Below are positions 230 to 63,853 of a DNA stretch of 64,000 bases, piece after piece. Origin of the DNA: Laetmonice hystrix (lineage: Eukaryota); contig OZ249436.1 of the NCBI GenBank assembly GCA_965235115.1, forward strand, positions 5,148,001-5,212,000, in the 5' to 3' direction. A model generated the notes under the pieces. The model saw only the letters and a list, made by a program, of their open reading frames with translations, did not search any database and had not been told where the DNA came from. Position 1 is the first letter of the stretch. Each line of letters opens with the position of its first letter. Made by a program: the position numbers and the translations under genes.

Positions 230-3200
230 CAAAACTCACCATCGTCCTCTACAACCAGTTCCATCTTCTTCCTGTCTTCCTCGGAGACAGATTTCCATTC
301 ATCGGACCTGCGTTACATCATTATTGTTATGTTTTTATTACAAACCATGATTGCATGGCAAAACAGTCGTTTTAATTTCTTTTAATTTACCCATTGCTCA
401 ATGGGTCATAATATTGTTCTTAAAATATATCATGTTTTTTTGCCTGTGCACATTTTGTCTATGTAAAGGTCTATATACAGCTAGTGTATGACAGACAGGA
501 TTTTAAAGATTGTGTAGGATGGGAGTGGGGGTGGGGGTGGAGGGGGAGAGGGGTAAAAGGCCACAGGCCTTCGATTCATGCTATTCAGTACATCATCCAG
601 GTTTTAGTCCCCTCCCTAGATCCATCATTTCTATAATTATAAGGTTATGCCATCTGATCGGCGTCCTCTCACTCACTCATCACTCCAAGGTCCCGTCCAC
701 TCCGATTTCCCCCATGGATTTCGTAATCGAATCAACTTCACCGACCAACCCTGGATCCGTTGCTGGAAGGCAAGGAAAGGGCTTGCTGAACTGCATCGCA
801 AGATGATTCCAATTGAATAGATAATTGAACGAATTTCATGATGGATTAGAGCAACGATCTCGTCGTGTTGTGAAGAAGGACAATACTCACCTGCATGACA
901 GCGGTGACACTATAGGCATGCCCCTTGTACAGTCCGTTCAATTGACTTACTTGCATGACAGCGGTGACACTATAGGCATGCCCCTTGTACAGTACGTTCA
1001 ATTGACTTACTTGCATGACAGCGGTGACACTATAGGCATGCCCCATGTACAGTACGTTCAATTGACTTACTTGCATGACAGCGGTGACACTATAGGCATG
1101 CCCCTTGTACAGTCCGTTCAATTGACTTACTTGCATGACAGCGGTGACACTATAGGCATGCTCCTTGTACAGCCCGTTCAATTGACTTACTTACATGACA
1201 GCGGTGACACTATAGGCATGCTCCTTGTACAGTCCGTTCAATTGACTTACTTGCATGACAGCGGTGACACTATAGGCATGCCCCTTGTACAGTCCGTTCA
1301 ATTGACTTACTTGCATGACAGCGGTGACACTATAGGCATGCCCCTTGTACAGTCCGTTCAATGGACTTACTTGCATGACAGCGGTGACACTATAGGCATG
1401 CCCCTTGTACAGTCCGTTCAACTGACTTACTTGCATGACAGCGGTGACACTATAGGCATGCCCCTTGTACAGTCCGTTCAATTGACTTACTTGCATGACA
1501 GCGGTGACACTATAGGCATGCCCCTTGTACAGTCCGTTCAACTGACTTACTTGCATGACAGCGGTGACACTATAGGCATGCCCCTTGTACAGTCCGTTCA
1601 ATTGACTTACTTGCATGACAGCGGTGACACTATAGGCATGCCCCTTGTACAGTCCGTTCAACTGACTTACTTGCATGACAGCGGTGACACTATAGGCATG
1701 CCCCTTGTACAGTCCGTTCAATTGACTTACTTGCATGACAGCGGTGACACTATAGGCATGCCCCTTGTACAGTCCGTTCAATTGACTTACTTGCATGACA
1801 GCGGTGACACTATAGGCATGCTCCTTGTACAGCCCGTTCAATTGACTTACTTACATGACAGCGGTGACACTATAGGCATGCTCCTTGTACAGTCCGTTCA
1901 ATTGACTTACTTGCATGACAGCGGTGACACTATAGGCATGCCCCTTGTACAGTCCGTTCAATTGACTTACTTGCATGACAGCGGTGACACTATAGGCATG
2001 CCCCTTGTACAGTCCGTTCAATGGACTTACTTGCATGACAGCGGTGACACTATAGGCATGCCCCTTGTACAGTCCGTTCAACTGACTTACTTGCATGACA
2101 GCGGTGACACTATAGGCATGCCCCTTGTACAGTCCGTTCAATTGACTTACTTGCATGACAGCGGTGACACTATAGGCATGCCCCTTGTACAGTCCGTTCA
2201 ACTGACTTACTTGCATGACAGCGGTGACACTATAGGCATGCCCCTTGTACAGTCCGTTCAACTGACTTACTTGCATGACAGCGGTGACACTATAGGCATG
2301 CCCCTTGTAAAGTCCGTTCAATCGACTTACTTGCATGACAGCGGTGACACTATAGGCATGCCCCTTGTACAGTCCGTTCAATTGACTTACTTGCATGACA
2401 GCGGTGACACTATAGGCATGCCCCTTGTACAGTCCGTTCAACTGACTTACTTGCATGACAGCGGTGACACTATAGGCATGCCCCTTGTACAGTCCGTTCA
2501 ATTGACTTACTTGCATGACAGCGGTGACACTATAGGCATGCCCCTTGTACAGTCCGTTCCATACTCTTTCCTCCTGCGTTTCACCGGTATCATTCTGGAA
2601 AAATGCCATGCAATTTTATCTATATTCCTATCTGTGATCTGTGGGAACCCCATCGACACTAAAGAAGAGGCAGTATATCTATATAGTCTATATGTTCCAT
2701 ATATCTACATGTTCGCTCTAAGAAGAGCTCGACCCCGGCCTCATTAAAGCTAATAATTCATTCGGGGTAATACAGAACCACATGGAATTTGGCCATAATC
2801 TTGAATGACAGGCGGTGATGACTTGTGATACGCCAGCTGTGGGTAGACGGGAGGAGGGGGGCAGGTCAGAGCTTTAATGAGGCCGAGGTCGAGCTCCTCG
2901 TAGAGCGAACAGACTATAGTTAGGCCATAGGATCATTCTCTAGTGGATTTGTTTAATTTTTTTTATTAGGGATGCTAAGGGAATCTGTTAATCTACAATG
3001 TGATTAATGACTTTATTCCCGTGTGTATACTTCTAGTTTTGCTCAATGGTTTGGTATAGTTTACTGATACCACCGTACTCGGATGGAGGCCCCCATCAAG
3101 GAGCCAGCGTTGGTATATACAATGTAGTTGGTATATGGATGGTTCACTGATATCACCGTACTCGGATGGAGGCCCCCATCAAGGAACCAGCGTTGTAAGA

Positions 3201-6200
3201 CTGGAGAACGATATCAAACAGGTCGTCGGGTAGGTCGTCCTCCCGCCGTAGGTTAAAACACTCGGACAATCCACCCGTCAGGTCGACCAGGGCGTCACGG
3301 ATGTGTCCGCTCGAGATCATACCGTAACTACCGTGCAGCCTGCAGTATACAGGAAAGTAAACTTCAAACGAAGGTCCGTGCAGCCTGCAGTATACAGGAA
3401 AGTAAACTTCAAACGAAGGTCCGTGCAGCCTGCAGTATACAGGAAGGAAAACTTCAAACGAAGGTCCGTGCAGCCTGCAGTATACAGGAAGGTAAACTTC
3501 AAACGAAGGTCCGTGCAGCCTGCAGTATACAGGAAGGTAAACTTCAAACGAAGGTCCGTGCAGCCTGCAGTATACAGGAAGGTAAACTTCAAACGGAGGC
3601 CCGTGCAGCCTGCAGTATACAGGAAGGTAAACCAACGAAGGTCCGTGCAGCCTGCAGTATACAGGAAGGAAAACAAACGAAGGTCCGTGCAGCCTGGAGT
3701 ATACAGGAAGGAAATCAAACGAAGGTCCGTGCAGCCTGCAGTATACAGGAAGGAAAACTTCAAACGAAGGTCCGTGCAGCCTGGAGTATACAGGAAGGAA
3801 AACAAACGAAGGTACGTGCAGCCTGCAGTATACAGGAAGGAAAACAAACGAAGGTCCGTGCAGCCTGCAGTATACAGGAAGGAAAACTTCAAACAAAGGT
3901 CCGTGCAGCCTGCAGTATACAGGAAAGTAAACTTTAAACGAAGGTCCGTGCAGCCTGCAGTATACAGGAAGGTAAACTTCAAACGAAGGTCCGTGTAGCC
4001 TGGAGTATACAGGAAAGTAAACTTCAAACAAAGGTCCGTGCAGCCTGCAGTATACAGGAAAGTCAACTTCAAACGGAGGCCCGTGCAGCCTGCAGTATAC
4101 AGGAAAGTAAACTTCAAACGAAGGTCCGTGCAGCCTGCAGTATACAGGAAAGTAAACTTCAAACAAAGGTCCGTGCAGCCTGCAGTATACAGGAAGGAAA
4201 ACTTCAAACAAAGGTCCGTGCAGCCTGCAGTATACAGGAAGGAAAACTTCAAACAAAGGTCCGTGCAGCCTGCAGTATACAGGAAAGTCAACTTCAAACG
4301 AAGGTCCGTGCAGCCTGCAGTATACAGGAAGGAAAACTTCAAACAAAGGTCCGTGCAGCCTGCAGTATACAGGAAGGAAAACTTCAAACAAAGGTCCGTG
4401 CAGCCTGCAGTATACAGGAAGGTAAACTTCAAACAAAGGTCCGTGCAGCCTGCAGTATACAGGAAGGTAAACTTCAAACGGAGGTCCGTGCAGCCTGCAG
4501 TATACAGGAAGGAAAACTTCAAACAAAGGTCCGTGCAGCCTGGAGTATACAGGAAGGTAAACAAACGAAGGTCCGTGCAGCCTGCAGTATACAGGAAGGA
4601 AAACTTCAAACAGAGGAGACCTGCCATGTCGGCATGGTTACAGGAACGTATCATTGGTGCCCGTTTCTTTCCTTGTTCTTAGAGCTTTCTGAGGAAGTCT
4701 CCCAGATTTACACTTTGTTAAGGAAATAATTTGGAGGCTCAGCATGGTCAATTCAGAAAGTTCTATCGGGGAAAAAGAAACATTGGTTGGCAAGGGGCGG
4801 GGGGGGGGGTTAAACCCCTCACCCCCAACACTGTGAGACCATGTCAGGATTTACATTATGTACAGATAGATCTGAAGCACGCTGCGGCCAGTGTCAACTT
4901 AAACCTACTGTGTTGACGCTGATTCAACGAGCGAGTAAAGCTATATTTAGGCCTAATTGTAATCAGTGACATCATTTTGAACCAATCACAGATAGGCACT
5001 GGAACCAATCAGGCCGCAGCGTGAATGAAAGCAGATAGCTGATTGGTTGCTACAAGTGCGGAGTGTGGGCGGGTCGGACAAGTCGGCCATGACGAACATT
5101 CGTCCCACATACGAGTTTACATATCCCTTTAACGCTGGACCAGCGCCTACACCATGGAGTGAGGTGCTGGGCACAGCGTGGATCTGTAGACTTGGGCATG
5201 GACTGACTTGCAATGAAAGTTTGATTATTATACGGTAGCCTACTTGGCGTACGCCTTCTCAAGGAGAGGTGCCCAGAACTCGTTCGGCTGACTCCGGTTC
5301 TGGACAAAGCGCAGCTCGCCGTCCTCATCGACAGGAAGTCTGTCGTCGACCACCACTTCCTCCCATCGTCCGTACCGCCAAATGTTGAACCGGAATGCTC
5401 CTGTATCAAACAACAACCAATCAATCATGTTCGTTATCTGTGGAAAAGCAAAGGCGGTGTCGAGACCAGTTTGATTTCCTAGAAACTCAGACGCTCTCTT
5501 TCCGTAAACAACTTTTGTTCATGCAAGGCCAAAGAAAATGTTTATGTAGGCATGGGTGGCACACCTGGCAAGACTGGGGGGCACACATAAGCCCCGTTTA
5601 CATTACCAAAAAAATAAGGGTGCTCGGTCCGGACCGAGAACGGTAGGCCCCCTACCCCTAAAAAAGTTTGTGTTACATTATCACAAGGTGAGAAATTAAA
5701 CCTTAACTAGGCCAATACATGCATTTTAAACAATGTGCAACATCAATCATACGTAAAGTAGGCTAATAATATAGTGAATATGAACATTTTGAATATGCGT
5801 CTATTCTAATTTAACATACAAGGTAAACGACGTATAGGACTACATGTATATGCGATGTGGAATTGTTAAATTTAATTTTCATGAAGCGTTACGACTGTAG
5901 AGGCCTACCTATGTACTCTGATATGAAGTTCTGCTGAAGTGGCACCACCTGTCGGAATAGTTCGGGTTTGGTGGCCAGGACTGCCGCTGACGCCAAGAAC
6001 CAACAGTCCCCTGAATGATTAAAACAGTATCACCAACTGTGAGATACTATATCAACTGTGATATACACTGTAAAAAAATTCTCAGTAAATTTACGGTAAC
6101 AAGCCTGTGCAGCAATGTTGCCAGCCGAATACTGTAAATTTACATCATACCGTAAAAAAATATCTACCGTCATTTTACGGTGTGAAAATTACGGTGGCCT

Positions 6201-9200
6201 GCCGTAAAAAAATAGTACCGGAATTCCACCGTAATGCCACAGTCATATTCACACCGTAAAATGACGGTAGATATATTTTTACGGTGTACTGTAAATATAC
6301 GGTATTCGGCTGGCAACATTGCTGCACAGTCTCTTTACTGTAAATTTACGTACAGGGTTTCTACCGTAAGGCCTAAACATTTCAACGACCTTCTTTATAC
6401 CGTAGGATTCCATTTATTGTACCGTAAGACAAGAGATTCCTCTACCAGATTTCTACTGTAATTTTACGTGGTAAGCAGTAACTGCATAATGTTACGGTAT
6501 TTTACTGTATATATTAATACAGTTGGTAATCTTGGCAGGGGGCTTCAAACTTTTCATTTGCAAGCTTCGTACTGCTTTCGATGCCATACTCTAACAGGAA
6601 GCACAGTGGTGTCCAAAACAGAATACTTCTTTCTCTGAAAACACTTTAATCAATTACATGATGTAACAGGTGTTACAGGTACAACATGTATAGCTTTCAA
6701 AGTTTAATCCATAAAGGCACAAAAAGGTCTTTCATGATACAAATGCATGACCATGCAATTGGCTTGCTTTGCTAATCACAAAACGTCAAGGCCATTGCTA
6801 AAATTGTTATGCCAAAACAATAAACTTCAACCTCCGGTACATGTGTTACTGGCAATAGTTTTCAAAGTCTGCCTATAAAGGCAAGATAGATCCATAAAGC
6901 CACAAAACAATACAGATAAACGAAAACGAATAATGTCTTAATACAATGTCATGTGTGAATACTGTGTTACTCGTGGGTCATTCCATGTCAAATCGACCAA
7001 TTTTGGAAAATCTTCCCGGGGGACCATCTTCGATTTTTTTCAAATTTGGCATGCAGTTAGACCTGTGTATTTTCAGTACAATCCTAAAATTTTGCTCCAA
7101 AATACCCAACGGTCTCCGAGTTACACCCCGATAAGCGAGGGTGGGGGTACCCCTGAACAAAGCACGTTTAATTCTGAGCCATTTTTAGAGGGCTACCATT
7201 CAGAAACTGTAAGAGCTGGCAACTTGTATTTTTCCCCACTGAAACTTCAATATGTAGAGACCAGGAAAAAGCAATAACATTTTATTTCTTTGCTTATTCC
7301 TTGGAGCACCATGCCCCCCAAAATGGAAAAAAACACATCAGAGAAAAAAAAATTCAATATTCAAACATTTTTCATGCGAAGGTTATTTCTTGTAACTTCT
7401 TGATCTTTGGGGATTTGATTTATGGCTATATGAGGTGCATGCAAACACCAAAATAATCTTCCAAAAATAGACACAGGTGGCGCCACTAGTGGCCAAAGTT
7501 GGCCGATCGCTAAATATGACCCATTTTGAGAGGCCATTTTACCTATGTTGCCAAGGTGGAAGAGCGTTGGGATATTTTTTCTTTGATAGTGCACATTTTT
7601 GCCATTAAAGAAAACTAAGTCCCTAATCCCTTCCATACTTCCTTCCCTGGCAAATAATTTTTCAAATAATATCCATTTTAGTAAAGTTCACGCTGTGACG
7701 GGATATGAGGTACGTTGTTTTTATATCATAAAATTTTTATTATTTGCCAAAGAATTCTTGAAAGTGGTAAATATCCCAAACTGTTGGTCTTTTGTAGATT
7801 TTTGTCTTTAAATTAATTAGTTAATTAATTAATTATAAATAAATTTATAAATTTATTTTAATTAATTAATTTAATTAATTAATTAAATTATTGATTTAAT
7901 AACTTAAAATCATAAAATATAATAATATAAAATAAAATATAAAAATAAATTATAAATTTATTTATAATTAATTAATTACTTTAATAATTAATTTAAATAC
8001 AAAAATCTTCAAAAGACCAACAGTTTAAGCTATTTACCACTTTCAAGAATTCTGTGGCAAATAATAAAAATTTTATGATATAAAAACAATGTACCTCGTA
8101 TCTCGTCACAGCGTGAACTTTACTAAAATGGATATTATTTGAAAAAATATTTGACAGGGAAGGAAGTATGGAAGGGATTAGGGACTTAGTTTTCTTTAAT
8201 GTCAAAAATGTGCTTTATCAAGGAAAAAATATCACAATGCTCTTCCACCTTGGCAACATAGGCAAAATGGCCCCTCAAAATGGGTCATATTTAGCGATCG
8301 GCCAACTTTGGCCACTAGTGGCGCCACCTGTGTCTATTTTTAGAAGATTGTTTTGGTGTTTGCATGCACCTCATATACCCATAAATCAAATCCCCAAAGA
8401 TCAAGAAGTTACAAGAAGGAACTTTTGCATGAAAAATGTTTGAATATTGAATTTGTTTTTCTCCGATGTGTTTTTTTCTATTTTGGGGGGCATGGTGCTC
8501 CAAGGAATAAGCAAAGAAATAAAATGTTATTACTTTTTCCTTGTCTCTACATATTAAAGTTTCAGTGGGCAAAAATACAAGTTGCCAGCTCTTATAATTT
8601 CTGAATGGTAGCCCTCTAAAAACGGCTCAGAAAAAGAAACGTTTTTTTCAGGGGTACCCCCACCCAAACTCATGGGGGTATAACATGGGAACCGTTGGGA
8701 ATTTGGAAGAAAAATTTCAGAAATGTACTTCAGATATATAGATCTAACTACATGCCAAATAAGAAAAAAATTGGAGATGGTCACCCGGGAGCCACTGGTC
8801 GATTTGACATGGAATGACCCTCGTAATACTTTTAAAGTTTGATCCCTTTTAAGGCACAAAAAGGTCTTCCATGATTCGAATGAATATTCATTTTGGCATA
8901 ATTAGCTTCGTTGCTATTAAATGCTAAGGTGGTTGCTAAAGTAATTAATAAGAAAACCATGAACTCAAACTGTAGTACGGGCAATAGTTATCAAAGTTTG
9001 ATCCATAAAAGGCACAAAAAGGTCTTCCATGATACATATGCATGAACATGTAATTTGCTTCATTAATAACAAAACGCAAAGGTGGTTGCGTAATTTACCA
9101 GTACATATGTTACTAGAAATACATGTAAAAATGCTGACAAATGCAGAATTTTCCTCATCCGCCACGTACTTATCAATAAACCATTGGAAGTCCACCCATG

Positions 9201-12200
9201 TAACTATACGTCAAGATTTTTAAATATCAGATCTCTGCTTAAAGTTAAACGTTCTGTATGTCAGTTTTAAATACAATCCAATACGGTATACAATAGTACT
9301 TCACCCACTGGTGTACTACCCACTGGTGCTACGTACTAAGTCCACTCTTCATTTGGAATCTGTAAATACACAAATTCAAAAACAACGATGAACCATTTAA
9401 GACGAAGTTAATGGACAGAATCATGGCGTTTCAGTGTTTGGGTTCAGTTAACCTATTAGTTATCAGAAACAAAATGCTGTCTAATCTAAAAAGATACATT
9501 TTTCATGCTTTGTTCTGAAAGCTAAATAAATAAATTCCTTTGAAGTATACATGTATACTCATAAGCTTACCACATATTTGGGAGCCACTGCTGGTTGGAA
9601 ACTTCATTGATCAGCTTCAAGACCTTTGGGTTGACGGTGTAGGGTTTCTTTCTCCTTTCCACCCTTAAACCCTTTTCTGGGTTAATACCCACAAGGCACC
9701 TGTAATCACATCTCATACATTAGTCAAATGGCACCTGGGAAAAAATTCTTTTTGATTATATTGTTTTGTTACCTTTAAATGAAGTTACTTCAGAAAAAGA
9801 CAAACATAGAAAAAAAAAATCAAAAATACCTTTGGATAAATTCTAGGGTTGCGGCCACTTTGGGGCTGTAGTGGAAATTGAATACGTAAAATGCCCCAAA
9901 CACCATACAAATGGCTTTGGTGAGATCAGTCAGTCTTGTAACTGGCCTGCCCTCAATCACAACGACATACGTGCAATCTAGTGGGTTTCCTGTAAAGAGA
10001 GAAGTAACCTTCATTGTACAAAAGATGTATACTTTCTTCCACGTCAATGCACATTTGACAGAAACCATTAATATGTTTAAATAGTCACGTGTACAATGTA
10101 AGTTATCAAGTCATTATTTTAAAGTCTGGCATTTATAAACACATACCGAGTGCAAGAAGGAAGGGCGTTTTGGGAATTAGTTCATCTTTGAGAACTTCTT
10201 GAACCTTGGCGGAGGCCTTAAAATCGAAGTATGAATGAATAATTTCAAAAACATACAAAAACATAAAAGAAATAACAATAATATAACATTATTACAATAT
10301 ATTTGCTCTACAGCATTTAACCATTACTTGTTTAACTTTCGAGGTAAATGGCCAAGAAGCCCTTTTTAATGAAGGTTTACTGTATGCAATTAACAAGAGT
10401 ACCAATTGATATAAAATAACAAAACTGAGATAATCAACTGAATGTTGGAATATAAAGAAATTGAATAATGTAACATATTGAATCAACATTGGCAAGCTTA
10501 ACAATAAAGTCAAACTGAACAATAAAAGCAGTGTAGGTAAATGGGGTTCAACCAAAACAACAAAGATTATCTCCCTGACCCCCCCCCCCCCCCCCCCCCC
10601 CCACAGATCTTTTGACACTGCAATTCAAAACTAGATCTATAGTTAACGTAACAGTCTAGCCTCCCCGCCCCCCCCCCCCCCCCCTAGTCATGAGTAGGCT
10701 AACCAAGGCATGGGGCCGCACAGCCCCCCCCCCCCCCCAATACTAAGACCTGATTGATATTAGGCCTAGGCCTATAGACATCACATAGTACTATACAGGG
10801 GTGTAGGAAAAGGGGCGGCCAGGGGGGCCATATCCCCCACTTTGAAATGTGAGGGTGGGGCCAGCAGGGGTGTAGGCAGAACTGAGAATATAAGGGGGGG
10901 GGGTTCCAACTGAGATGGGGGGGATCCCAACCATAATATTAGTTATTCATTTAGACAGATCTATTTATTTGGTTATTAAATATTATTATCTATTAGAGTC
11001 TAATCTTTTTAGGGGGAGGGGGGTTCCAGGCAACCGGAAACCCCCGAGATGGGGGGTGGGGGGATCCCACCCATAATATTAGTCATTCATTTAGATCTAT
11101 TTCAGTATTTGGTTATTATCTATTAGAGTCTAATCTTTTTTTTTTTGGGGGGGGGGGGGGGGGATTCGAGGGGGGTTCCAGGCAACCCGGAAACCCCCCT
11201 GGCTACATCCTTGGCCAGAGCATCTTTTGCTCCCTCCCCTTTTTAATCATATAGGCTACCTTAGGCTGATGGACTCATTTGCCTCCCCCCCCCCCCCCCA
11301 TCCCCACCCCACACAGACACTTTTCATGGCCCTCCCTAGTCCCTACGCCCCTGCACTGCTGCAGTAACGGCACTAAATTTTCTAAAAGTTAAAACGATGG
11401 CAGGTATACTCCACATCGTCTACACAAAATAGCCAAGCCAAGCCCCTGAAGTTTCAGCAGGTTGTAGATCTATTAGGTACCCTAATGTTATATAGCCTTA
11501 TAATAGTGGCTTATAGGCCTAACGTTAACGTTCCTCGTTAGCCTACATTCGTTGTGAGTCTGGAACGTACGCAGGCTAGTCTAACGTTAGCCTAGGCCTA
11601 CGTGTTACCAGCCGCTGGTCTAGACACGCGACAGGTTTACCCATCCAGGGCCGGAGCCGGGGGGCACCCCCCCCCCCCCCCTTAGAAAACACAATTAAAT
11701 CTAACTTAAACTTACCACACAATGTCACCGTCGTCCATCTTGCTTCAGTGTGTGCTTGCCTTCGGCTTCACGTCGACTCCAATATGGCCGTTTGAGCGGG
11801 AACTACACTTGTGACGTCACATAAACCCGGATGTAGGCAACGGGGGTCAGTAAAATTACGGTAGAAAATCAGTTGTGACGTCATCGATATCGGCGCTAGC
11901 TAAGACCAAAAAGAAGCGTTTCCTTCCGAAAGATGGCGCTTCACACACCAATGTGACACGCAGCACAGCTGGCATTCTATGAGTATGAAAATGGGGAAAA
12001 GGGGGACATCATGCCCAGCTATGTATAGGCCTATGTATGGCAGCCTAGCCTAGGCTAAGGCCAACTTGGGAGCTCGGCTAGATAGGTCTAGAGGCTGAGC
12101 TAGCTGCGGGCTATCAAAGCCAGGCCAAAGAACTTGGCTATGGGGGGGGGGGGGGGGGCTAGGCCTACTAATCTACGGTAGGTACCTGTAGGCCTATAGT

Positions 12201-14419: not shown

Positions 14420-14879
14420 TCTATGGGTCAATTCTCAGTCCGGAACATGAACTAGGCGCCTTGAATTCCTGGGCTGACAGCGGAGCAAACACTGTGACAA
14501 GGAACTGAGATATAGCAGGTCTAGCCGAGTTCTATTTGGCCTCCCATGGATGCCTGGTTTAGCAATCACTAGATAACCGTAGTTTATGTATTCCTGTAGG
14601 TCCACACAGAGAAACGTGGATCCCGGCCCAGGAGGAATCCTACATAGCAGGAGCTGCAAGTCTGGACTGGTAGTCCTGGAACAGCCGCAAACTTTTGACA
14701 CGTGCGCTTTAATCGCACAGTGTTCACCGAAATAAACAATGCTGGAAGATATTAGACCTGTATATCTCAGTGTACTGGAGGAAAGGCAGACCGTACTCTA
14801 TCGTATACAGGCCAACAAGTCTATAGTGTTAGGGCTATGGTTGACTATATTGAGATGACGTAGGCGTATAGATGTAGGC

Positions 14880-30325: not shown

Positions 30326-30376
<51 letters not shown>

Positions 30377-36983: not shown

Positions 36984-36992
36984 TTTCCTTAA

Positions 36993-39020: not shown

Positions 39021-39028
39021 CGTGGCTG

Positions 39029-45600: not shown

Positions 45601-46051
45601 GTGAACGGATGGTACTCGCTCGAGTTCTGAACAAGGCTTGCAACCCGCACCCATTGACCAGACTTGTACTCAAAGTTTTGCGGCCGCTTAAACTGAATGT
45701 ACGTCACGTCTATAAAAAAAACAACACACACATACATCTCATCATCGGGGTTTAACGTGTTCTGAGGGAGCATGAGTTTCATACAGGTGCTATAGGGGTT
45801 AAGTAGAGGACAATCACGTTCCAAACAATAATTCTTAAAGGGACCAAGCACAGGTCACCAAAGGAGAATTGAAGCCCAAATCAGTTTGACCTCAAAGTGA
45901 ACGTATAGGTCTGTCTATCCGGTCCGTGGATCTCCGCCATATGGCTTCCGTGACGTGTCAGTACACCGGATATGACATGCAGGATAAATAAATAGATCTA
46001 CCCGTGTGGTGAATACTGGTCCCTCTCCTCTCTATCGCACCTCTCTCTCCC

Positions 46052-46087
<36 letters not shown>

Positions 46088-46190
46088 CCTCCCTCTCCCT
46101 TTCTCACTCCTCAATCCTCTTCTGTCTATCTCTGTCTGTCTCTGTCTCTGTCTCTGTCTCTCTTTCTCTCTCCCTCTCAATCCTCCTCCC

Positions 46191-46226
<36 letters not shown>

Positions 46227-52200: not shown

Positions 52201-55200
52201 GAGTTTATCCAAAGTTATATTGAATGTTCTTAAACCGGTTTTCATTGCAATCTGCGGACAGTAAATAAAACATGTTTGGAAAACTTTTTTTTCTGCTTTA
52301 TTTTTTACTTGGGGGGGGGGGGGTACTTTGGTTGGTAAGTGCTTTAGGTTTCGGTGTTGGTATACCGACACCATACGAATTGTCACCGGGAGAGGGCTGA
52401 TTGTGAGGGAACGTTTAACCACGGCACTAAGATGAAGCACATTGGGGGATGGCCATGCACCCTATAAACAACAGGGCATTCTATAATTTGTTGCACTCGA
52501 TTTGAAAAGATGCGTAATTGACCGTGGCATAAAAGCCTCTAGACTAGTGGTATGGAAACTCGCCAGACGTAACTGTTAGGAAAAATTTTCCTTATCCAAA
52601 CTAAAATTTCTTCCAGATTAAACAAGTATTATAAGTCTGAGGGGATTTTAAAAATTCCGGCTTTTAATGGAATATCATTTGGCTTTATTTCCATTGCATT
52701 TCCATGATAAAATTACTTGCTTTATAAGTAATTTTGAGTCGGTGAAGATGGAAGATACTTTCCATATGTAGGGATATCATATCCGTAATAGAGCCAATAG
52801 TAAATACATAAATATGACAAGTACGTTAAAAAAGACGAGTGCGAGAAAGTTTAGAATACCCTGTGTCACCTTATCCCAGCGAATATATATATATATATGC
52901 AACGTGGTGGGATATGCAGTAGAAGAAAGGTTACCCCGAATTTTTTTCTTTTTCCGTTTTCTCTTGTACTGCTTTTCATCGATGAAAAGTTGATAATATA
53001 GTCTTACGTGGTTGAGCAGATAGAACACACCGGGAGAGCTGCCTGGAAGTGGGTCAGAGTAAGTATGAATGTATGAATGCATATACCCTGAACACGAGGT
53101 GGCGCAGATAGGGTTGCGGAAGCAGGAAACAAAAGAAAGCAAATAATCTTAACAGACTGATTGGTGCTTGTATGAAAATGGTCTCCATGTGGTTGGTTGT
53201 AACTTGCACCGTTTGGAAATCCTACTTTTGGAAGTCGGTGTGTACCTTGATACTTCTTTCATACCTCAGTTTGTACAGCTAATACATGAGTGATACACAA
53301 TCATTAACCACACCCTCAGGTCCTCGTAGGAAACCGGTAATGGCGGTTATATTTGATAAACAATTATTGTGTTCTGACAACGTCGCAGGTAACCTTTGAA
53401 TGTGTTCTTGAATACATTGTCAGTTCCTACTCCACTACTCATTTAGTGAGTACGTCGTTGGACATTCCTGCAATCATCCTACAGTAGCGCTCAATTAAAA
53501 TGACGAGGGTCCCCAAAAAGTTCCTACAGATTCAAGATCTTGCTTAAGCTTAAGCTTAACGCTTCTGATTGGCTGGTCTACCAGCCAATCAGAAACGTTT
53601 AACTCAAACTTAGACAACATTTTAAGTTTTTAGGAACTGGGCTCAGATATTTAAGGGGAAAGCGCGTTTGAAGGAGCAAATTAACTCTAATATAAGCTAC
53701 TAAACTACATGCTTGCTATGGATATCACTTATAATACTCCAAACCTGGAGTAGTCTCACAGTCGTACGGCATGGTAAGCAGGGATAGAAAAAAGTCCCGG
53801 TGTAACATTCTAAAAGTACGAAATTCCGCGGGCTAAATCTGCGCTTCCATCTGTGGACAGTGTCCGTGAGATACATGTGCAGATCCACGGAACTTCTACA
53901 AAGGAAGAACTTCTAAAGTGCGACAGGTCAGTTTGAAGACCGTGACCACCATTTATACTGTCCCCTGCTATTTCTCCTTGGTCTATTTAGAAAATCTTAT
54001 TAAAATGACAAATAAGAATGACGAGTACCTGTGGCTGCCTTTTGGTATGATACTCACTAGTCCGTGCATTCATTCACAGTCATTCTTACTCGGTCACAAT
54101 GACGGAGCAAGGTGCGGACACAAACACAAAGAGCACTCTGGGCATGACCAAACTATCTCATAGTTGAATTATCACTTACGACTCGAGACTCTCATAAAAA
54201 TCTAAAATCTCATATCAGTAAACGAATACTGTCATGCCATCCAAAATCTCATAACAGTGATAAATCAATCTAATTCCATCGTGAGAGGTGATTCGTAAAG
54301 TCGTGATTCCTGTTACCAAGGCGTATATTCTGTACAATAATACAATTAAGGCAATCTTTAAACATCACATGCTGTGAATTCAAGATCTAAACTTCTAAAA
54401 TCTCTTTGTACAGTTGTTACCGGCATGGTCAAACCCGAGAAGTCCGCTTTGACTCCGTAGAGCTTGCATGGAAAAGCAACGATTATCATATTGAATATCG
54501 ACAGGAGTGCTATGGCAGTGGCTTCATAGTAATTAGTGTTTATCTGGTGAAAGTATGGTGCAGTTCCTGGATATGCATGGCTACTTTCTCATCACTTTAA
54601 GCCACTATTATGAACGGAATAGCTACTCTTGCTGCCATGTCTAACTACGACACTGGGTCTGTGCATACCGACCTCGCGACTAGAGCCAAGCAAGGGACGA
54701 GACATAACATCGAACAATAGAACTTTGTTAGTTAACGATTTCATATGCTGTTTGTCAGGTATCTACATAATGTTGGAATGACGTCACCTACCTGGTGTGA
54801 CTTCACCACGCGATGCGTGTTTGGCACTTTTTGCGCGGACTAAAGCCTTCTCTTTTTGGACTCGTCGTTTTGTCGTCTGCGCCAGACAGAGTAGCAGGAC
54901 GACCATTACTGCAAGGGAGAGCATGCCAGAATATAGACAACGAGTCAATCTCTGCGCTAAACATAGCTTCTGATTTACAGAGATATTCATAATAAAAGAG
55001 AAACTATCATGTCAGTGGGTATTTGAGGTACTCACGGGCAAGGAAGACCCCAATGGCAGCAAAGGTGAGAGCAAAAGCAACCTCACTGCCTGTGAAGTAG
55101 TCGAAGGTCTTCTGCTCTGTGCATTCTTCCATGTGGTCCGGGTTGCTGCCGTTCAGTTGGAATGGTTGTGGGCACGGGTCACCTGTCACCATACCGAATA

Positions 55201-58200
55201 TACTTAGTCTTCCAAAATATCTAAGTAACTCAAAGGACTACGATTTCATATTGTGAGTGGGCATTTCACGCAAGGAGCCAACCAGAAACATTAAGCTAAA
55301 CCAAAATCTTAAATTTCTGAAAACTGGGCCTATATATTTAAATCAGTCCGTTTCTATCTATACGTTGCATGTAGAGACCCTTCTCGTGAGAAGTTCACTA
55401 GAGTACTACCTGCCCGGAAGAAGAACGGATCGTCCTGGATGGCTGTCGTGGGTATATTAGTGACTGCAAGGATGATGTCCTTAATGGTCGTATCGTTAAT
55501 CTCGGTCACCTCCGCCTCCGTGTACAAACTACAAGATAAAACCCCACAATACAATAATACGCGCCTTATACACATGCTTTCTCTTTTTTGATTTCGTCTT
55601 GATATCAATGGAGAAATGTTGGAGAAAGGACTAGCACAGTTTTGATAGTATGGACACTCATGAGACTTTCAGGTCATAAGAAAGTGGACGTGTGGGGACT
55701 TACCCGTTGAGGCGGTAATTCTCGTACCAGAACCGATCTCCGTTCCGTATCCGGTTAAACTGATCTATGATGATAGCAGTGAACGTTGATCCTGGACCGT
55801 CTGCTGTCGTCTCCAGCAAACCTCCCGGCCACAGATCGACGTTGTTAATGTTATCCTCATATACATCTCTCAGTCGGTCAAATATCTGAACAGATAATCA
55901 GGTTAATGTTACACATCTCTCAGTCGGTCAAATATCTGAACAGATAATCAGGTTAATGTTACACATCTCTCAGTCGGTCAAATATCTGAACAGATAATCA
56001 GGTTAATGTTACACATCTCTCAGTCGGTCAAATATCTGAACAGATAATCAGGTTAATGTTACACATCTCTCAGTCGGTCAAAATATCTGAACAGATAATC
56101 AGGTTAATGTTATCTTCATACACATCTCTCAGTCGGTCAAATATCTGAACAGATAATCAGGTTAATGTTACACATCTCTCAGTCGGTCAAATATCTGAAC
56201 AGATAATCAGGTTAATGTTACACATCTCTCAGTCGGTCAAAGATCTGAACAGATAATCAGGTTAATGTTATCATCTCTCAGTCGGTCAAATATCTGAACA
56301 GATAATCAGGTTAATGTTATCATCTCTCAGTCGGTCAAATATCTGAACAGATAATCAGGTTAATGTTGTCATCATACACATCTCTCAGTCGGTCAAAATA
56401 TCTGAACAGATAATCAGGTTAATGTTATCGTCATACACATCTCTCAGTCGGTCAAAATATCTGAACAGATAATCAGGTTAATGTTATCCTCATACACATC
56501 TCTCAGTCGGTCAAAATATCTGAACAGATAATCAGGTTAATGTTATCATCATACACATCTCTCAGTCGGTCAAATACCTGAACAGATAATCAGGTTAATG
56601 TTATCATCTCTCAGTCGGTCAAATATCTGAACAGATAATCAGGTTAATGTTACACATTTCTCAGTCGGTCAAATATCTGAACAGATAATCAGGTTAATGT
56701 TATCATCATACACATCTCTCAGTCGGTCAAATATCTGAACAGACAATCAGGTTAATGTTATCCTCATACACATCTCTCAGTCGGTCAAAATATCTGAACA
56801 GATAATCAGGTTAATGTTATCCTCATACACATCTCTCAGTCGGTCAAATATCTGAACAGATAATCAGGTTAATGTTACACATCTCTCAGTCGGTCAAATA
56901 TCTGAACAGATAATCAGGTTAATGTTATCATCTCTCAGTCGGTCAAATATCTGAACAGATAATCAGGTTAATGTTATCGTCATACACATCTCTCAGTCGG
57001 TCAAAATATCTGAACAGATAATCAGGTTAATGTTATACATCTCTCAGTCGGTCAAATATCTGAACAGATAATCAGGTTAATGTTACACATCTCTCAGTCG
57101 GTCAAATATCTGAACAGATAATCAGGTTAATGTTATCCTCATACACATCTCTCAGTCGGTCAAATATCTGAACAGATAATCAGGTTAATGTTGTCATCAT
57201 ACACATCTCTCAGTCGGTCAAAATATCTGAACAGATAATCAGGTTAATGTTATCGTCATACACATCTCTCAGTCGGTCAAAATATCTGAACAGATAATCA
57301 GGTTAATGTTATCATCTCTCAGTCGGTCAAATATCTGAACAGATAATCACGAGTATTGAACGTGATAATGTTTCTTTCGTTGACCTTTTCAAATATACTA
57401 GTAAACTTCAAACTATTTGTTGGGTTTATCAAATCTGTTCAGATCTATGCTTGAATATCTGCGAGTTAGATGTAGGCCGAGCCCCTAATCGTTTTTTTTA
57501 TTGCATGTTAAATTTAAAGCGAGGATTTCGTAAACGGTACGATGACCTTTCCTGGTGTAACTTACTTCCGGTTCGTCGGCATACAGGGTCGGGTTGATGT
57601 CTTCCCACCTCGTGATGGGGTCAAGGCCGTAGTGCATGCGCACTGTGTTGTAGTCCGGCAGACCGTGATCTCTGCCTCGCTGAATGTTTACGGCCATCAG
57701 ATCACGGCGAGAAAACTCCAGTGGACCAAAAACAAAACCTAAACCAAACAGAGGTCTTCTTACTGCTGTTGTAATCATTACAAATCCATTCAGTGTTGAG
57801 TGACACTCGTTGTATGATAATAGCAGGCACGTGTCCAGGATTTTCAGCAGCGGGGGGGGGTCTCAGAATTTTGCTCTGAAACGCGATTCCCCCGCCATTT
57901 TACTTTACATTTTGTAGATTCATCGCTCAACAGGTTCAAAACGGCGGAAATGCTTAGAAAAAATCGCTGAACGGGTTCAAAACGGTGGGAATGCTTAGAA
58001 AAGATCTATGCTCTGTGGGATCAGGTGGGGTCCGGACTCCCTGGACCCCCCCCCCTCTGGACACGCGCCTGAATAGGCTACTCCTTTAAAACAATATAAC
58101 AACAATTTAAAGTGAGCATTATTCCATGAGTTGGGGCACACCAGTACAAACACTGTCCTCTCATAAACTAATATGATAAACACGTAACGGGATGAGGGCC

Positions 58201-61200
58201 CTTCACGGTAGGAAAGCATGGAACGAGATGCCTGGAGCATGAATACGGCACGACACCGGGAGCATCGAGTTCCATACTTTCCCGCCATGGAGGAGCCGAA
58301 TCCTCTTAAGTATGTGCTTGGATTAGTTCTAATTTTAGGAAAACAGACAACATCCTCCCGATCGTGAAAGGCTGTCATTCTTGTTTACGAACCGCGGATG
58401 GCCTGATTTATAATACATGTTTCTGTGCGTCCATAGGGCCCCATACTTAACGTGGCGCTGCCCCAAAACGTGTATCATAAAAACAGTCCATATGGCGCCA
58501 GAGAGCCTGAACAAACTCTAAGCTCTTTGATGGAACACACAATGCCATACGGACCACCATATTGCAGCCCCTGAATGACACTGGCAGATAGAATGCGCAT
58601 ATAATAATAAATATAAGATGTATAGATCTATACTTGTATAGTGTGTCGGTGGGCGACTTACTCACCTCGTAAGTCGGGCGTGATGATATTGTCTTCTCTC
58701 TCTGTCACCTGGGAGGCCATTCCCATCAGGAGCTCGTCAATATCATACTCATTTACGCCCTCCTGCACCAGGCATTCAGGGGGAATACATATGTATATCA
58801 ACAATGTATCTCTCTACATATAACAGGCGCGGAGTTCTTACAGGCCAACTATACCGAATTTGACCTTTTATCTCCGACGAGCTAAATGATGCCCTTTAGG
58901 ATATAACATCACCCCCTCCCAAATATAACCCAGAAAAATTAAATTAAAATACGAAATGTTTAAGGTTATGTTGGACATTGTGGTGTATTTTCTACTTAGA
59001 TTTAGTTTATATTTAAAGCCTATTGTGTTTCCATATCTGTCAATAAAACAATACTACTACTACTACTACTACTACTCTACTACTACTACTACTACTACTA
59101 CTACTCTGTGTACAGGCCTGTCTGGTATTCTGGCGTCATTCTTACCTGAGGATTCCAATAAACATTGCAGGTCCGCAGCGCCGCCCTGCCGGCGTAGAGT
59201 GTAGCCCGACTTGTATTCCGGAAGTTACAGTTAGCGTCTCTGAAATGAAGCACATTTGGTCAGTACAAAAAAAGGAGAAGAAAATAACGTTCTGAAACCT
59301 GTCCTACTGTTCAATGAGTAAGGGAAAACATTAGCCATGTTATTTTACAATTACATTAAATGCAAACGCCACCGGGATGGGAGAAAATGACGATTACAAA
59401 AAGGAAGATCAGTACCTTCTGAAGACACCAGGGGGCACTAGTGTATGGCCGAATCTCATGGCTGCTGATTGGAACACATGAGCGATCCCTGGATGGACGG
59501 TGTTGTCATATCCTGTTGAAAATGTAGTGCAGTAATATCACGGTTATAACGTGCGCAACACTTGTGAATTTTGTTACTCTTCTGTTCATGAAAGCAGGAA
59601 CTTGAAGGTACTGTCCTGTGTAAATCATATACTCGTTTTCGTAGGAATACCTTTATATTATACATATCTACAAATATTTACAAATAGACCATTGATCTAC
59701 ATTGTACACTACTATATCTATGTATATCGGGTGGATAAAAAAAACGCCCCGAACTTTAAACTTCAATATTTCAAAAAGCAATGATTGTAATTCAATGAAA
59801 GTTTTCTTCATATCACTTCATGATGTTGTCTCTTAGTTGTTAATGTTACAAGTCAATAGCTTGGATAATATTTCCGTGGGGCTAAAAACAAAAATCATTG
59901 TACAAAAGCGCAATGCCGTGCTAAAGCGACGTGTAGTCGCACCCAGAGTGCCTGGCATCACACTCGAGTAGGTGGTCAATCGGTCCCCCGTTTTCACTTC
60001 ATACTGCTCTCAGTCTCTTTTTCCATGAGCCAATGCACTTCCTGATCTCTGATAGGGAAATATCTTCCCAACATTGGGAAATATGCAACGTTCTGAATGT
60101 GTTGCTAAACGTGATAATGATACGATTTCCCTTGAACTTCTGGTTACAGTCATATCGTCCTAATGTTGCAGTTTCTCTGTAGGGTTTGGCACATTAAATA
60201 TCTGTTTTTCTTTAGAAGTACTAGGAATAGCACATAATTTATTATATCTAGTGGTCCACAACATTATACATATTGTAAAACATGCAAAAACTAAATATTG
60301 AAATGTTTTTACCCAAGGTACAACGCGGTGCATCAAACAGGTATCAAATTGGACACCTGGCAGCTGCATGATATTTGACCTAATTCCGGCATTGCGTTTT
60401 TAGACACTGATTTTTGTTTTTAGCCCCACGGGATTAATATTAAAACTATTGAGCTGAAACTTTAACATACCAGAGATAATATCATGAAGTGGTATTAAGA
60501 GAAATTTTATTGAATTATAATGCATAGTTTTTGAAATATTAAAGTTTAAAGTTCGGGGCGTTTTTTTTATCCACCCGATATAACATAGAGGGTACTATAT
60601 AGCCCAAGGCGGATATGTCTCATGTTGTCAGACCCAGTAAAATACCTATAGGTAATCCATTCTCAGTACGATATATTCACTCGAGAGGAACGTTTAGCTG
60701 TCAAACCAAAGAGCGACTTTGAACCGTTGTGATCCCATGTGTAAGACTCACCTGGGTAGGGTGGGAGTGGCCGACTTACCCAGGCAGGCAACCAGTCGTA
60801 CGCTACTAGTTTCTGGTAAAACAAAGAAAGAACACTCTCACTCACACACATCTCATCTCGAGGTTATATCCCCTGTGCCTTTTTTGGGTTATAGATTGCA
60901 ATGACCCTTCAGTAAGGTGCTGTCTGAAACAGATATATCCCTTATAGTGAGAACTAAGATGGTCTTCAGGAAGGGCAAGATAACTGGGGCCTGAAGGCTT
61001 CCGGTCGCCCAGTGGTTCCGACTGGGTTTATCATAGGGCGGGGGTGGGGTGGGGGGGGGGCCATTTTCATCATCGTCATCATCACTCACAATGGACTGAA
61101 TAAATGAAAATTATTTGTTCCTCTCCTGAAGACTGCCAACAGCTGCCGACGGAATGTAAACCACGAAAAATGTCGCAACCGCGAGAAATGTCCCAAGAGG

Positions 61201-63853
61201 ACAATAGATAGGGCTATATCTTTAAAACGGTCAACATAGTTACTATTAATGTTAAAACTATAGAAACCCATGTACGATTTATTAATTGCCATATGCCATT
61301 ACGTATCAAGACGTAATTAAATCAATAGCTGTGTCTCGGAAAATATGAGCCATAAGTGCGTAGTTACTATTGAACTTGAATGGGAACCCAGTTATGTCAT
61401 ATTTTCGGAGGTATAGCCATTACGTCTTGATTATACGTCATGGCATATTGTGGCAGTTGAAAGCTCATACATGAGTTCCGATTCAAGTTAATCCTGGTCC
61501 CAAGAGTAGGGCTCCTCTCTATGATCTGGGCACCGTACCTGATGGACAGCAATAACCCAGCTCCGTGCCGCCACAAACAGCTGTTCGTCCGTCCAGTCTG
61601 GGTTGTTGGCCTTGAATTGACGCGCCTTGAAGTTATGATACCGGAACCACAGCACGCCGAACGTCAACAGAAACGTGTTCTCGTTTCCGCGGGGGTTCCC
61701 GATTTCTGTTAACATAAGGTAGGCCAACGGCATTAAACACATCTCGGCTAAAGGCTATGTAATATAATGTATATATTTTAATGATGTAACCGTTATCAGA
61801 CCCTAATGTAACTTATTTCCACGAGTGTGCTATCGTAGATATTGCATTCGTAAGTCTCATTCTCGTGCTTCATATTAAAGAAGCTCCGTTTCGAACCTAT
61901 TATAAAGGCATAAAGCATTGGAGCCTTCCCTCCGATATGCAATACCTATTATGTTATTATCTGTTATCCGTTTATCTCTTAATGAAGTATTTTTTTATCC
62001 TAAAGGATGCTCGGGGTTCTCCTGATGTTCTGGATCTCGAGCCTTGAGTTTAAAAACTGTTCGTATATCCAAAATAAAAGATATATCCCATTCCAGGTGT
62101 ACGTACTGTAAAAACGGTTAACTGGTTTCAGATAATGATCACGTGGAGGCGGAGGGTTAGCAAAGGGTAGACGGATCTGGTTGTTGGCAGGGTAATAACC
62201 CGGGTCATCACCCGTCCCATCGTAACTGTCGTTAGTGGCCGCTAGGAGGCCATCCTCAAACCTCCTCAGAGCGTCAGTCCACGACTTGGCCGGACCGTAC
62301 ATTAACGTTCCGTCGATAAAGGACGAGATCTCATTGATCTACAAAAGATGATAGGTCCACGTGGTTATTGAATAGAAATACACGTGTGTAAGTGAGGAAA
62401 AGTGACACGGTACAAGGGGTATAGTAAGATATATGCAGTTCCAGCAAAAAACCTCTTCTGACGTTTCTTCATTACGAAATTAGAAACGTGTGTACTCAAT
62501 TGAGTAACATAACTATCCTTAAAGTCTATATTTCAAACAATCTCTGATCTCCTCGCATGACGAAAACTGTTCTCCTTTATGTGAGCTACCTGTTGTCTTG
62601 GGTTGTTGGGAGAGAAGCCAGTCCTCTGATCGTAGCGGGACCGGAGCAGTGGCAATTCCTTGCCGCCTACATCCTCCTGGTCATAGAGAGGGTGCCCACG
62701 TGGAATCTTGATGTTGAAGTATTCAGGCGGGCACCCTGGACGTTGGGCATCGAGAACCTCCTCCACTACTTGCTGACCTGGCAAGGTCAAGCACCAATAC
62801 GAGATGTTCATGTCATCATTAAAATTGAGGTATAGGGCCTACTACTTGCTGACCTGGCAAGATCAAGCACCAATAGGAGATGTTCATGTCATCATTAAAA
62901 TTGAGGTATAGGGCTTATGGGGGCCTACCGTGACCGCAGTCTTTCAAGGCAGAAAATAGTAGGCCTATTGACCACAATATTTATATCAATGTTATATGTA
63001 CGGTAAATTTGTTACCCTTGAACCCAGTATTTGAAAAATTGAGATCTTGTTTGCGCTTGGCGTTCCTGTTTGGCTGGTCTATTCAGGACCGTACCCTATT
63101 CAGGGGACACTGCTTTAAGCTTGAGAAGAGGTTATGGTTTCCAAAGAAAGAATATCTGAACTTGTTTCTATATATCTGATAGATAGCCAGTTACTGTTAC
63201 ACACATAGATAGATACATAGATACTGTCACACACATAGATATCCAGTTACTGTCACACACTTACCAAAGAAAACAAGCAGCGCTGTTCTGCCCCTGTATG
63301 ATGGGAACCCCGTCGATCCATTCATGACACTTTCACTGATGGTGATCGGGTTTGGACGACTTGTTCCGGCTGGCTCGTACACACCATCACTGTACACAGG
63401 GGGTACCCGACGGTAGAGCTGTGTCTCTGCATCAAAGTTATACCCAACGTCTTCACAGTCAGCAAGGAAACAGGTCAGCACGATCATAAAGGATAGCTTG
63501 TTGTAAATCTGATGTTGTATTAAACATAGGCGCCCGAACATATTCAGAGTTTGGGGACCAACTATATCCAATGTGCCCGAGGGGACGAAGCCGAAAGATA
63601 TACTTGCAGGGTTACTCCGATGACCAGTCAAAGCCCACCCTCTCCGCATACAGCTTTACAGCTGGGAGGGCCTTGTTAACAATCTTTGTGATCGGCCATT
63701 CAGTTTGATAGGCATCAATGTATATTATATGGGTCCCACTTTAGCTTCCCTATAGCAGGGACTGGCGCTCACCTGAAGCACCCCAGTCTGGGTGAGCAAA
63801 GTTGTTGAAATATCCATCATATGGACGGTCTTCGATGTATTCATGGTGCTGAC
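42668..63853 (-). CDS. Duox: Dual oxidase (peroxidase-like ectodomain, TM, EF-hands, NOX ferric-reductase/FAD/NADPH domains); signal-peptide exon not identified in window
   Basis: 28 phase-consistent GT-AG exons: 63853-63773, 63426-63265, 62777-62590, 62338-62107, 61705-61539, 60812-60752, 59512-59416, 59239-59146, 58762-58666, 57738-57566, 55885-55704, 55528-55410, 55182-55036, 54908-54792, 50238-50009, 49874-49686, 49361-49133, 48827-48734, 48540-48365, 48246-47953, 47446-47216, 47024-46931, 46777-46446, 45709-45480, 45114-44956, 44553-44398, 43990-43862, 42793-42668 (4586 nt). Motifs: [73 protein letters not shown]-stop. Confidence 0.98.
42800..43431. repeat. 69/48-bp tandem array, 10 copies, abutting the last Duox acceptor
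   Basis: gtaaacgatagg recurs with spacings 69,48,69,69,69,69,48,69,69; the array stops about 5 nt from the AG at 42794-42795. Confidence 0.95.
43429..43575. mobile_element. Hairpin MITE-like element
   Basis: actctgagcaaagctgagctgagc ... gctcagctcagccttgctcagagt inverted ends, plus an internal stem gtgtgttttcc/ggaaaatacac. Confidence 0.55.
46021..46245. repeat. (CT)n-rich microsatellite
   Basis: Direct reading. Confidence 0.9.
46271..46486. repeat. 56-bp tandem array, 4 copies, made of a Duox exon 3' end plus donor
   Basis: Minus-strand unit GATAGAGATAGCCGTGGTCCGAGCTGAACTGCTTCCTTCAG|GTTTGTGGATAAAAT; copies at 46271, 46327, 46383, 46439. Confidence 0.97.
53519..53644. mobile_element. Palindromic MITE-like element
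   Basis: Central palindrome tctgattggctggt-ct-accagccaatcaga with agttccta/taggaact ends; a related half-copy lies at about 55275-55331. Confidence 0.5.
55843..57349. repeat. 49-60-bp tandem array, about 28 copies, made of a Duox acceptor plus exon start
   Basis: Minus-strand unit CTGATTATCTGTTCAG|ATATTTGACCGACTGAGAGATGTGT(ATGAGGAT)AACATTAAC; the last copy runs into exon 55885-55704 ([19 protein letters not shown]). Confidence 0.97.
57824..58071. mobile_element. Short CAGG...CCTG-ended MITE
   Basis: caggcacgtgtccagg ... ctggacacgcgcctg inverted ends, with aatag on both flanks. Confidence 0.55.
59053..59105. repeat. (TAC)n microsatellite
   Basis: Direct reading. Confidence 0.95.
59725..60580. 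mobile_element. Tc1/mariner-type MITE with about 190-bp TIRs
   Basis: TA|tatcgggtggataaaaaaaacgccccgaactttaaactt ... aagtttaaagttcggggcgttttttttatccacccgata|TA; inverted similarity extends to gtggggctaaaaacaaaaatca / tgatttttgtttttagccccac. Confidence 0.85.
61287..61455. mobile_element. Small inverted-repeat element
   Basis: tgccatatgccattacgtatcaagacgtaat versus attacgtcttgattatacgtcatggcatattgtggca. Confidence 0.5.
62765..62914. repeat. Two-copy duplication (76-bp period) of a Duox acceptor plus 13 exon nt
   Basis: actacttgctgacctggcaag...aaaattgaggtatagggc at 62765 and 62841; AG dinucleotides at 62778-62779 and 62854-62855. Confidence 0.93.

Follow-up and report, generated by a model that had tools for sequence, protein, structure and literature searches.

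Mirage-type minisatellites spanning splice junctions in a calpain and a dual oxidase gene of Laetmonice hystrix

Mirages, minisatellites whose repeat unit spans an exon-intron boundary, were reportedly first described by Canestro et al. in 2002. In lancelets they are found at both 5' and 3' boundaries of Adh3, the globins BflGb6 and BflGb9, troponin C and PGBD5, with splicing remaining regular (excerpts of PMC3087553 and PMC3902484), and their authors suggested that they are possibly general in cephalochordates (PMC3087553, same excerpt). In humans, as far as the excerpted text of PMC1557585 goes, the first monomer of the 37-bp variable number tandem repeat (VNTR) in intron 7 of F7, and of similar repeats in IFI6 (6-16), CBS, LMNB2 and PDGF, spans an exon-donor boundary, F7 splicing being confined to the most upstream donor. 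Here, we analyse a stretch of 64,000 nt from Laetmonice hystrix (contig OZ249436.1 of assembly GCA_965235115.1, forward-strand positions 5,148,001 to 5,212,000; hereafter the window), in which two neighbouring genes, one for a calpain and one for a dual oxidase (Duox), carry six arrays of this kind. They are a dense new example set of the known mirage/F7-type junction minisatellite, outside lancelets and vertebrates. Our main result is a negative one: once the arrays are collapsed and the real intron geometry is considered, the spanning arrays can be explained without junction targeting.

An earlier note on this DNA, made from the letters alone, had proposed that six repeat units span functional splice sites, and the proposal holds for each of them. 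Tandem Repeats Finder (TRF), with which arrays were detected, recovers five, the sixth (missed by TRF) was found by a repeat search, and exon maps obtained by tblastn place a junction in every unit. The maps consist of merged blocks of high-scoring segment pairs (HSPs), of which automated splice-site refinement left many edges open; the edges adjacent to arrays were set by eye, and for all six arrays the junction positions were read from the bases of the gene strand against these maps. Coordinates are those of the window, and both genes, with the arrays in them, lie on the minus strand.

Three of the junction-spanning tandem duplications belong to the calpain gene (a donor array of 28 copies, a donor array of two and an acceptor array of 29). 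In the 28-copy donor array (885..2559; 60 nt x27.9, 97% matches by TRF) the unit comprises 48 nt of exon end and 12 nt of intron (GTAAGT..), the authentic exon ending at 2511 with its GT at 2510-2509. This unit is in frame (20 codons) and largely open, an in-frame TAA being present in 2 of the 28 copies. The donor reads CAA/GTAAGT (the slash marks the junction) in the first and internal copies and CAG/GTGAGT in the most distal one, and a higher-order period of 11 units is apparent from an identity of 98.65% at lag 11, as against about 97.4% at other lags. The two-copy donor array (3056..3195), missed by TRF, consists of 57-nt copies at 3056-3112 and 3139-3195 that are 93% identical and recur with a period of 83 nt, about 33 nt of which are exon and the remainder intron; the exon ends at 3162 (ASIR/GTACGG, i.e. 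..ATCCGA/GTACGG). The acceptor array (3331..4611; 45 nt x28.9, 93% matches by TRF) repeats 36 nt of the 3' end of the intron (..cctgtatactgcag, ending ..ctgcag) together with 9 nt of the exon, which authentically starts at 3339, and is open in the frame of that exon (a 494-amino-acid open reading frame, ORF, at 3153-4637).

The Duox gene holds the other three (a donor array of four copies and acceptor arrays of 28 and two), all of them recovered by TRF. The donor array (46266..46491; 56 nt x4.0, 98% matches) has a unit of 40 nt of exon and 16 nt of intron, with the exon end at 46446 and CAG/GTTTGT in four of four copies. The 28-copy acceptor array (55844..57349) was registered with periods of 50 and 59 nt (x27.8 and x18.6, 89-90% matches) and is made of about 28 units of either 58-59 or 50 nt, in which 16 nt of intron (..ctgattatctgttcag, ending ..tgttcag) precede 42 nt of exon. 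The start of the authentic exon is at 55885, the upstream copies lead into an in-frame TGA, and TRF gives a higher-order period of 433 nt as well. The two-copy acceptor array (62765..62914; 76 nt x2.0, 97% identity) combines 63 nt of intron with 13 nt of exon, the latter starting at 62777.

Measured against what characterises mirages, all six arrays have a real boundary inside a head-to-tail unit of minisatellite size (45-76 nt by TRF, 2-29 copies, 89-98%, the sixth having come from the repeat search), and the authentic site was seen in use at one of the six, the four-copy Duox donor. As in lancelets, where units measure from tens to about 160 nt, the units here straddle both 5' and 3' boundaries, and the arrays evolve in concert while edge copies escape; they differ in that the host is not a lancelet and that copy numbers reach 28-59 in this genome, compared with 2-6 in the lancelet globins. 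The likeness to the F7-type VNTR is seen at the 28-copy calpain donor and the four-copy Duox donor, where the first monomer spans the exon-donor boundary and identical pseudo-donors follow. It extends to splicing at the Duox array, since only the most upstream donor is used there in the one RNA contig available: contig 25 (depth 89.8) of run X4, which we take to be RNA by its behaviour (this contig joins Duox exons with GT..AG ends), connects 45709 to 46446, skipping 736 nt that have GT..AG ends on the minus strand and thereby using the exon-proximal donor. Three pseudo-donors are thus passed over in this assembled contig, and as contigs drop rare isoforms, minor use of the others is possible. 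Unlike the human cases, all of which are donors, three of the six window arrays copy acceptors, where the last copy must be used; by analogy, the exon-proximal acceptor would be the one chosen in them. The human cases are also isolated ones, whereas about 2-8% of the mapped junctions are affected here (5 of 208 in the sample described below, 6 of about 72 in the window).

As the earlier note had stated, the units share no sequence with one another: a cross-blast of 14 of them returned a single, trivial 12-nt match. In the genome, the Duox four-copy donor unit matched its own locus only, and so did four arrays that abut junctions, both results being lower bounds since the DNA search skips very common words. 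The junction arrays as members of a dispersed satellite or of a transposon-borne family were accordingly rejected, the tested arrays being single-locus. We located calpain and Duox paralogues in the assembly (627 Mb in 35 contigs) and examined 280 kb around 11 loci, which added five junction-spanning arrays: donor arrays in calpC20 (80 nt x59), duoxC21 (41 nt x5) and calpC1b (76 nt x2), and two acceptor arrays in calpC10 (124 nt x3.8 and 64 nt x3). The last of these occupies the junction homologous to that of the window's 29-copy acceptor array with an unrelated unit, so that the homologous K/LHGSY junctions of two paralogues bear units of 45 and 64 nt that have nothing in common. Because the units are unrelated, at these junctions as elsewhere, the arrays are, as judged from sequence, of independent origin. 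A further donor array (53 nt x22) resides in LIG1, 4.8 Mb from the window (C1:319001-329000), and with these six additional cases the recurrence that had been claimed is well founded.

Minisatellites fill roughly half of the 10 kb examined at LIG1, including a 42-nt x28 array deep in an intron and a 40-nt array that continues past the end of the stretch.

The earlier note had reasoned that junctions make up a small fraction of intron length, so that such a concentration of arrays would call for a junction-targeted duplication mechanism or for selection of decoy sites. Present intron lengths mislead in this respect, because the arrays themselves account for the bulk of that length. With each array reduced to one unit, the host introns of the window measure 118, 668, 566, 224 and 355 nt, and that of the 59-copy calpC20 array 156 nt, and a random unit of 45-80 nt placed in its own collapsed intron straddles a junction with a probability of 0.12-0.67. 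With compact genes and host introns that were short before expansion, a considerable fraction of the duplications arising within genes is presumably bound to cross a junction. Duplications are plentiful, too: 270 kb of independent sequence contained 110 arrays with periods of at least 15 nt (0.44 per kb), and the window 21 arrays with 11.3 kb of extra copies. As a null model, the unit of each array was placed randomly on collapsed gene coordinates (wholly exonic placements excluded), either gene-wide or within its own intron. Of the 36 intragenic arrays in the 10 loci picked solely for their gene family, 3 span a junction, while 2.85 are expected at gene level (p=0.56) and 3.16 conditional on the intron (p=0.66). 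If calpC10 is included, which stands outside the strict sample as it was prioritised after suspicious matches, 5 of 38 arrays span in 11 loci, with 3.65 (p=0.29) and 3.79 (p=0.31) expected, respectively. An enrichment over shuffled placement is therefore not supported in unselected genes: spanning overlap matches the geometric expectation, and a junction-targeted mechanism is in all likelihood unneeded. To the mirage literature, as excerpted from PMC3087553 and PMC3902484, we thus add a computed chance expectation, and our literature search by titles and abstracts found no genome-wide test of minisatellite-junction overlap.

We consider it probable that the arrays are mirage-type minisatellites born of ordinary local tandem duplications (about 45-125 nt) in a repeat-rich genome, with endpoints that flank a junction by chance. 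Replication slippage or template switching would make a small duplication, and unequal exchange then expands and homogenises the pair into 2 to 59 near-identical copies with higher-order periods and less homogenised edge copies. It is the array structure that shows this second step, since the 11-unit period of the calpain donor array, the 433-nt period of the Duox acceptor array and the divergent copy at the distal edge are typical marks of unequal exchange and concerted evolution; the idea that two-copy and roughly 30-copy arrays are stages of one process is plausible in the same terms. The gene would survive as long as the exon-proximal site is used and the other copies are removed as intron, as seen at one donor array and expected at the rest from the lancelet and human precedents. 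That the exon-proximal copy restores a normal protein while the extras lie on the intron side, which the earlier note had stressed, is true, but it holds for any tandem duplication that crosses a junction. Mis-splicing to other copies would mostly yield premature stops, except at the two calpain arrays with units divisible by three. Neither a junction-seeking mechanism nor a function of the extra sites would be required.

Several observations weigh against this reading. In the window itself, 5 of the 14 intragenic TRF arrays span a junction, more than the 1.49 expected at gene level (p=0.009) or the 2.39 conditional on the intron (p=0.05), and with window and sample pooled the count is 10 against 5.14 expected (p=0.024); we stress that the window is an upper-tail example, having been picked out for its junction arrays. 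The sample is small (10-11 genes of 2 families), and its HSP-based maps have hand-fixed edges and are probably missing some exons. Run X4 gives little or no cover over 55.9-63.9 kb, where the 28-copy and two-copy Duox acceptors lie, and acceptor choice was seen at no acceptor array. More pointedly, in the 10 unbiased loci the array edge falls within 15 nt of a junction, with the site left uncopied, in 5 cases against 1.14 expected (p=0.005), and automatically measured distances give 4 against 0.86 within 10 nt, 7 against 2.4 within 30 nt and 10 against 3.9 within 50 nt. This amounts to a 2.5-4-fold over-representation within 15-50 nt (p about 0.005), for which the cut-offs were picked after seeing the data and in which one of the ten automatic cases is an artefact of an HSP edge. 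Old arrays would seem too close to exons because later insertions inflated the introns, but multi-copy DNA makes up about 420 of 1907, 760 of 1561, 58 of 1182 and 0 of 1339 nt in four of the near-junction introns, and transposon inflation explains only part of the excess. As its full cause it was set aside, having been only partly borne out (two of the four introns hold young multi-copy elements).

In the window, the earlier note had listed three repeats that abut a splice site without copying it. Two of them stand, at 5-6 nt from their junctions: a Duox array at 63178..63260 (26-30 nt x2.9 by TRF), which begins at intron position +5 after the donor TTTG/GTAAGT (exon end 63265), and a larger one at 42800..43432 (69/48 nt, about 9 units by TRF), which stops short of the last coding exon (start 42793), 6 nt ahead of the AG of that exon, has its own GTAAGT and AG-like motifs in each unit and is single-locus in the genome. 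The third, a weak 19-nt x2 repeat in calpain (6028..6065), is below the TRF threshold and lies 17 nt upstream of its acceptor (6010/6011). It belongs with the 19/38-nt array detected by TRF at 12857..13105, which lies about 75 nt into the intron as counted from the donor of the ..AQGSLG exon, to one 19-nt repeat family (common ATATCAACTGTGATATAC), the two sitting at opposite ends of the same 7-kb calpain intron; they are probably one old array of a once short intron, into which some 6.8 kb of insertions later came to separate its halves. The claimed concentration at junctions is not supported for the spanning arrays and survives as a hint only, in that arrays gather close to intron ends while leaving the splice site uncopied.

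This hint could be read as a sign that minisatellites start preferentially at or near exon-intron junctions and that the arrays copying splice sites are partly purged by selection, which would leave them at an apparent chance level. Such a preference might stem from pausing of the polymerase, from R-loops or repair linked to co-transcriptional splicing, both purely hypothetical here, or from the low complexity of the sequence at intron ends. The excess within 15 nt speaks for such a bias, as do its persistence at cut-offs of 10-50 nt and the joint count of spanning and abutting arrays in the unbiased loci (8 against 4.0, p=0.037); abutting arrays are, moreover, locus-specific rather than mobile families, the window has 5 spanning arrays where 1.5-2.4 are expected, and two LIG1 arrays end shortly before acceptors (a 45-nt x12 array at 14 nt, and a 61-nt composite array of 1.5 kb at 31 nt). 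We nevertheless regard this explanation as unlikely, given that spanning arrays are at chance level, that the cut-offs are post hoc on 36-37 arrays of two gene families, that introns have been inflated (by young multi-copy elements in two of four cases, and in the 7-kb calpain intron with repeat halves left at both ends) and that low-complexity sequence, either purine-rich or T/G-rich and of a kind expected near splice sites, makes up two of the five abutting arrays. To a modest real bias of minisatellite birth towards intron ends we give a low but not negligible probability. If it were, against our expectation, true, mirages would be the visible survivors of junction-focused mutation arising from splicing- or transcription-coupled DNA instability, around ten thousand junctions could be affected (an extrapolation from an assumed total of about 400,000 junctions, a figure that is unmeasured), and the genome would provide a genome-scale natural experiment on how the spliceosome picks one among dozens of identical sites, acceptors included.

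Selection might instead keep the arrays as decoy or alternative splice sites, whether for tuning expression through unproductive splicing and decay or for varying protein length through the in-frame calpain units. The pseudo-sites are identical in sequence to the authentic ones, two units (60 and 45 nt) are multiples of three and largely open, and human IFI6 and CBS make use of two extra pseudo-donors (PMC1557585, in the excerpt cited above). We find this very improbable, however, as the spanning arrays are no more frequent than chance predicts, a length divisible by three is found in only 2 of the 11 spanning units from window and paralogues (no more than the expected one third), the catalytic-histidine loop of calpain would be doubled by an in-frame insert, with stops in 2 of 28 copies, only the authentic donor appears in the one RNA contig seen, and homologous junctions in paralogues carry unrelated arrays with very different copy numbers. 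That the arrays or their copy numbers are assembly artefacts is hardly credible: although one lancelet globin mirage was misassembled in a draft genome (according to the excerpt of PMC3087553), and the DNA contigs break at the repeats without bridging them, the arrays contain structured variants (the 11-unit period, the mixture of 50-nt and 58-nt units), the same architecture recurs at no fewer than 13 independent loci (at least) in a 35-contig assembly, and the four-copy Duox array agrees with the RNA joint. The assembled copy number could still be off; contig depth is uninformative on it, as contigs that fitted two places were skipped, and all four sequencing runs derive from one sample. For the spanning arrays we therefore retain chance-placed tandem duplication, for which neither junction targeting nor decoy selection is needed.

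Tandem splice sites of the NAGNAG type, which go back to point mutations, are separated by 3-12 nt and frequently used in alternation. They share with the present arrays the presence of several competing sites close together, and differ from them in that whole units of 45-83 nt are repeated here, in up to 29 copies. Intron gain by tandem duplication of an AGGT-containing exon segment (the Rogers model; internal gene duplications were treated by Gao and Lynch 2009, both as cited in the excerpt of PMC3087553) likewise adds donor-acceptor signals within a gene by tandem duplication, but in our case an existing intron was lengthened and none was created. We rejected this model since the introns pre-exist: the K/LHGSY and ..DGEFW/ junctions are found between conserved exon blocks in paralogues that lack these arrays. 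The minisatellites of earthworm metallothionein and CeRep25B of C. elegans were dismissed as precedents, being intronic repeats without reported junction spanning, and branch-point-like motifs (CTAAC, CTGAC) in the acceptor-side units were discounted as expected by chance in units of 40 nt.

The phenomenon is thus not new, contrary to what the earlier note had surmised, since mirages of lancelets and junction repeats of five human genes have been published. The contribution of the window lies in density and variety (six arrays in two neighbouring genes, among them two acceptor arrays of 28-29 identical copies and two in-frame units), which would make this genome useful for studies of splice-site choice, especially at acceptors, where the last of many sites is taken, and of the load of decoy sites that a gene tolerates. 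It also carries a warning for gene prediction, as exon fragments and splice signals repeated within introns mislead annotation.

The calpain gene (1..14446, its 3' part lying beyond the start of the window) was recognised by ORFs with GDCWFLA, GHAYSVT and NPWG and by tblastn with named calpains, and the latter outlined eight rough exon blocks (240-310, 676-777, 2511-2594, 3162-3339, 5244-5410, 5907-6010, 13180-13245 and 14276-14446). In the interior of its 7-kb intron are large inverted repeats, whose ORFs at 7361-7687 and 8117-8443 mirror each other. The Duox gene (42671..63851, about 28 exon blocks) was mapped by tblastn with named dual oxidases and, in its 3' part, by joints of RNA contigs with GT..AG ends; its ORFs include peroxidase, EF-hand and NADPH-oxidase segments. 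Identity to the Duox proteins of its best relatives (annelids, echinoderms, a hemichordate and Branchiostoma) amounts to 54-60%, with 59-60% for annelids as against 54.5% for B. floridae, and by this measure the source is an invertebrate other than a lancelet. Four segments of its introns (47320-47983, 53296-53959, 57280-58607 and 59272-60599) reach contig word depths of thousands to hundreds of thousands, compared with about 60 in the flanks, and are high-copy repeats, presumably transposons; where DNA contigs join 47881 to 53549, the cause is probably an element present twice and not a deletion.

Among the calpain paralogues and other loci, we recorded a very young multi-copy element of about 760 nt (at least 45 copies across the genome, 95-99% identity) in a calpain paralogue intron (C10:24128001-24138000, 4050-4820), and an element of about 420 nt with inverted ends, resembling a miniature inverted-repeat transposable element, in at least 40 copies (L030, 7360-7780). 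Two calpain paralogues, located on different contigs, have one 52-nt satellite of about 12 copies each in their introns or flanks (merged coordinates 20304-20938 in the first, and 20923-21554 in the second, which belongs to C1:7207001-7247000); unlike the junction arrays, it is a dispersed repeat family. Downstream of a calpain paralogue in that C1 stretch (merged 22260-39449), units of about 850 nt form a macro-satellite of some 20 repeats, the same pair of 18-nt mini-repeats recurring in each unit.

Between the calpain and Duox genes, the window holds a G-rich minisatellite of 5.4 kb (19961-25402) with a 70-nt unit in about 77 copies, a higher-order period of 280 nt, a GC content of 0.60-0.67 and a strong GC skew of +0.35 to +0.44. 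Long imperfect (CT)n / (GA)n tracts extend over 30283-30552 and 46023-46243, the second of them directly downstream of the four-copy Duox donor array, in the same intron.

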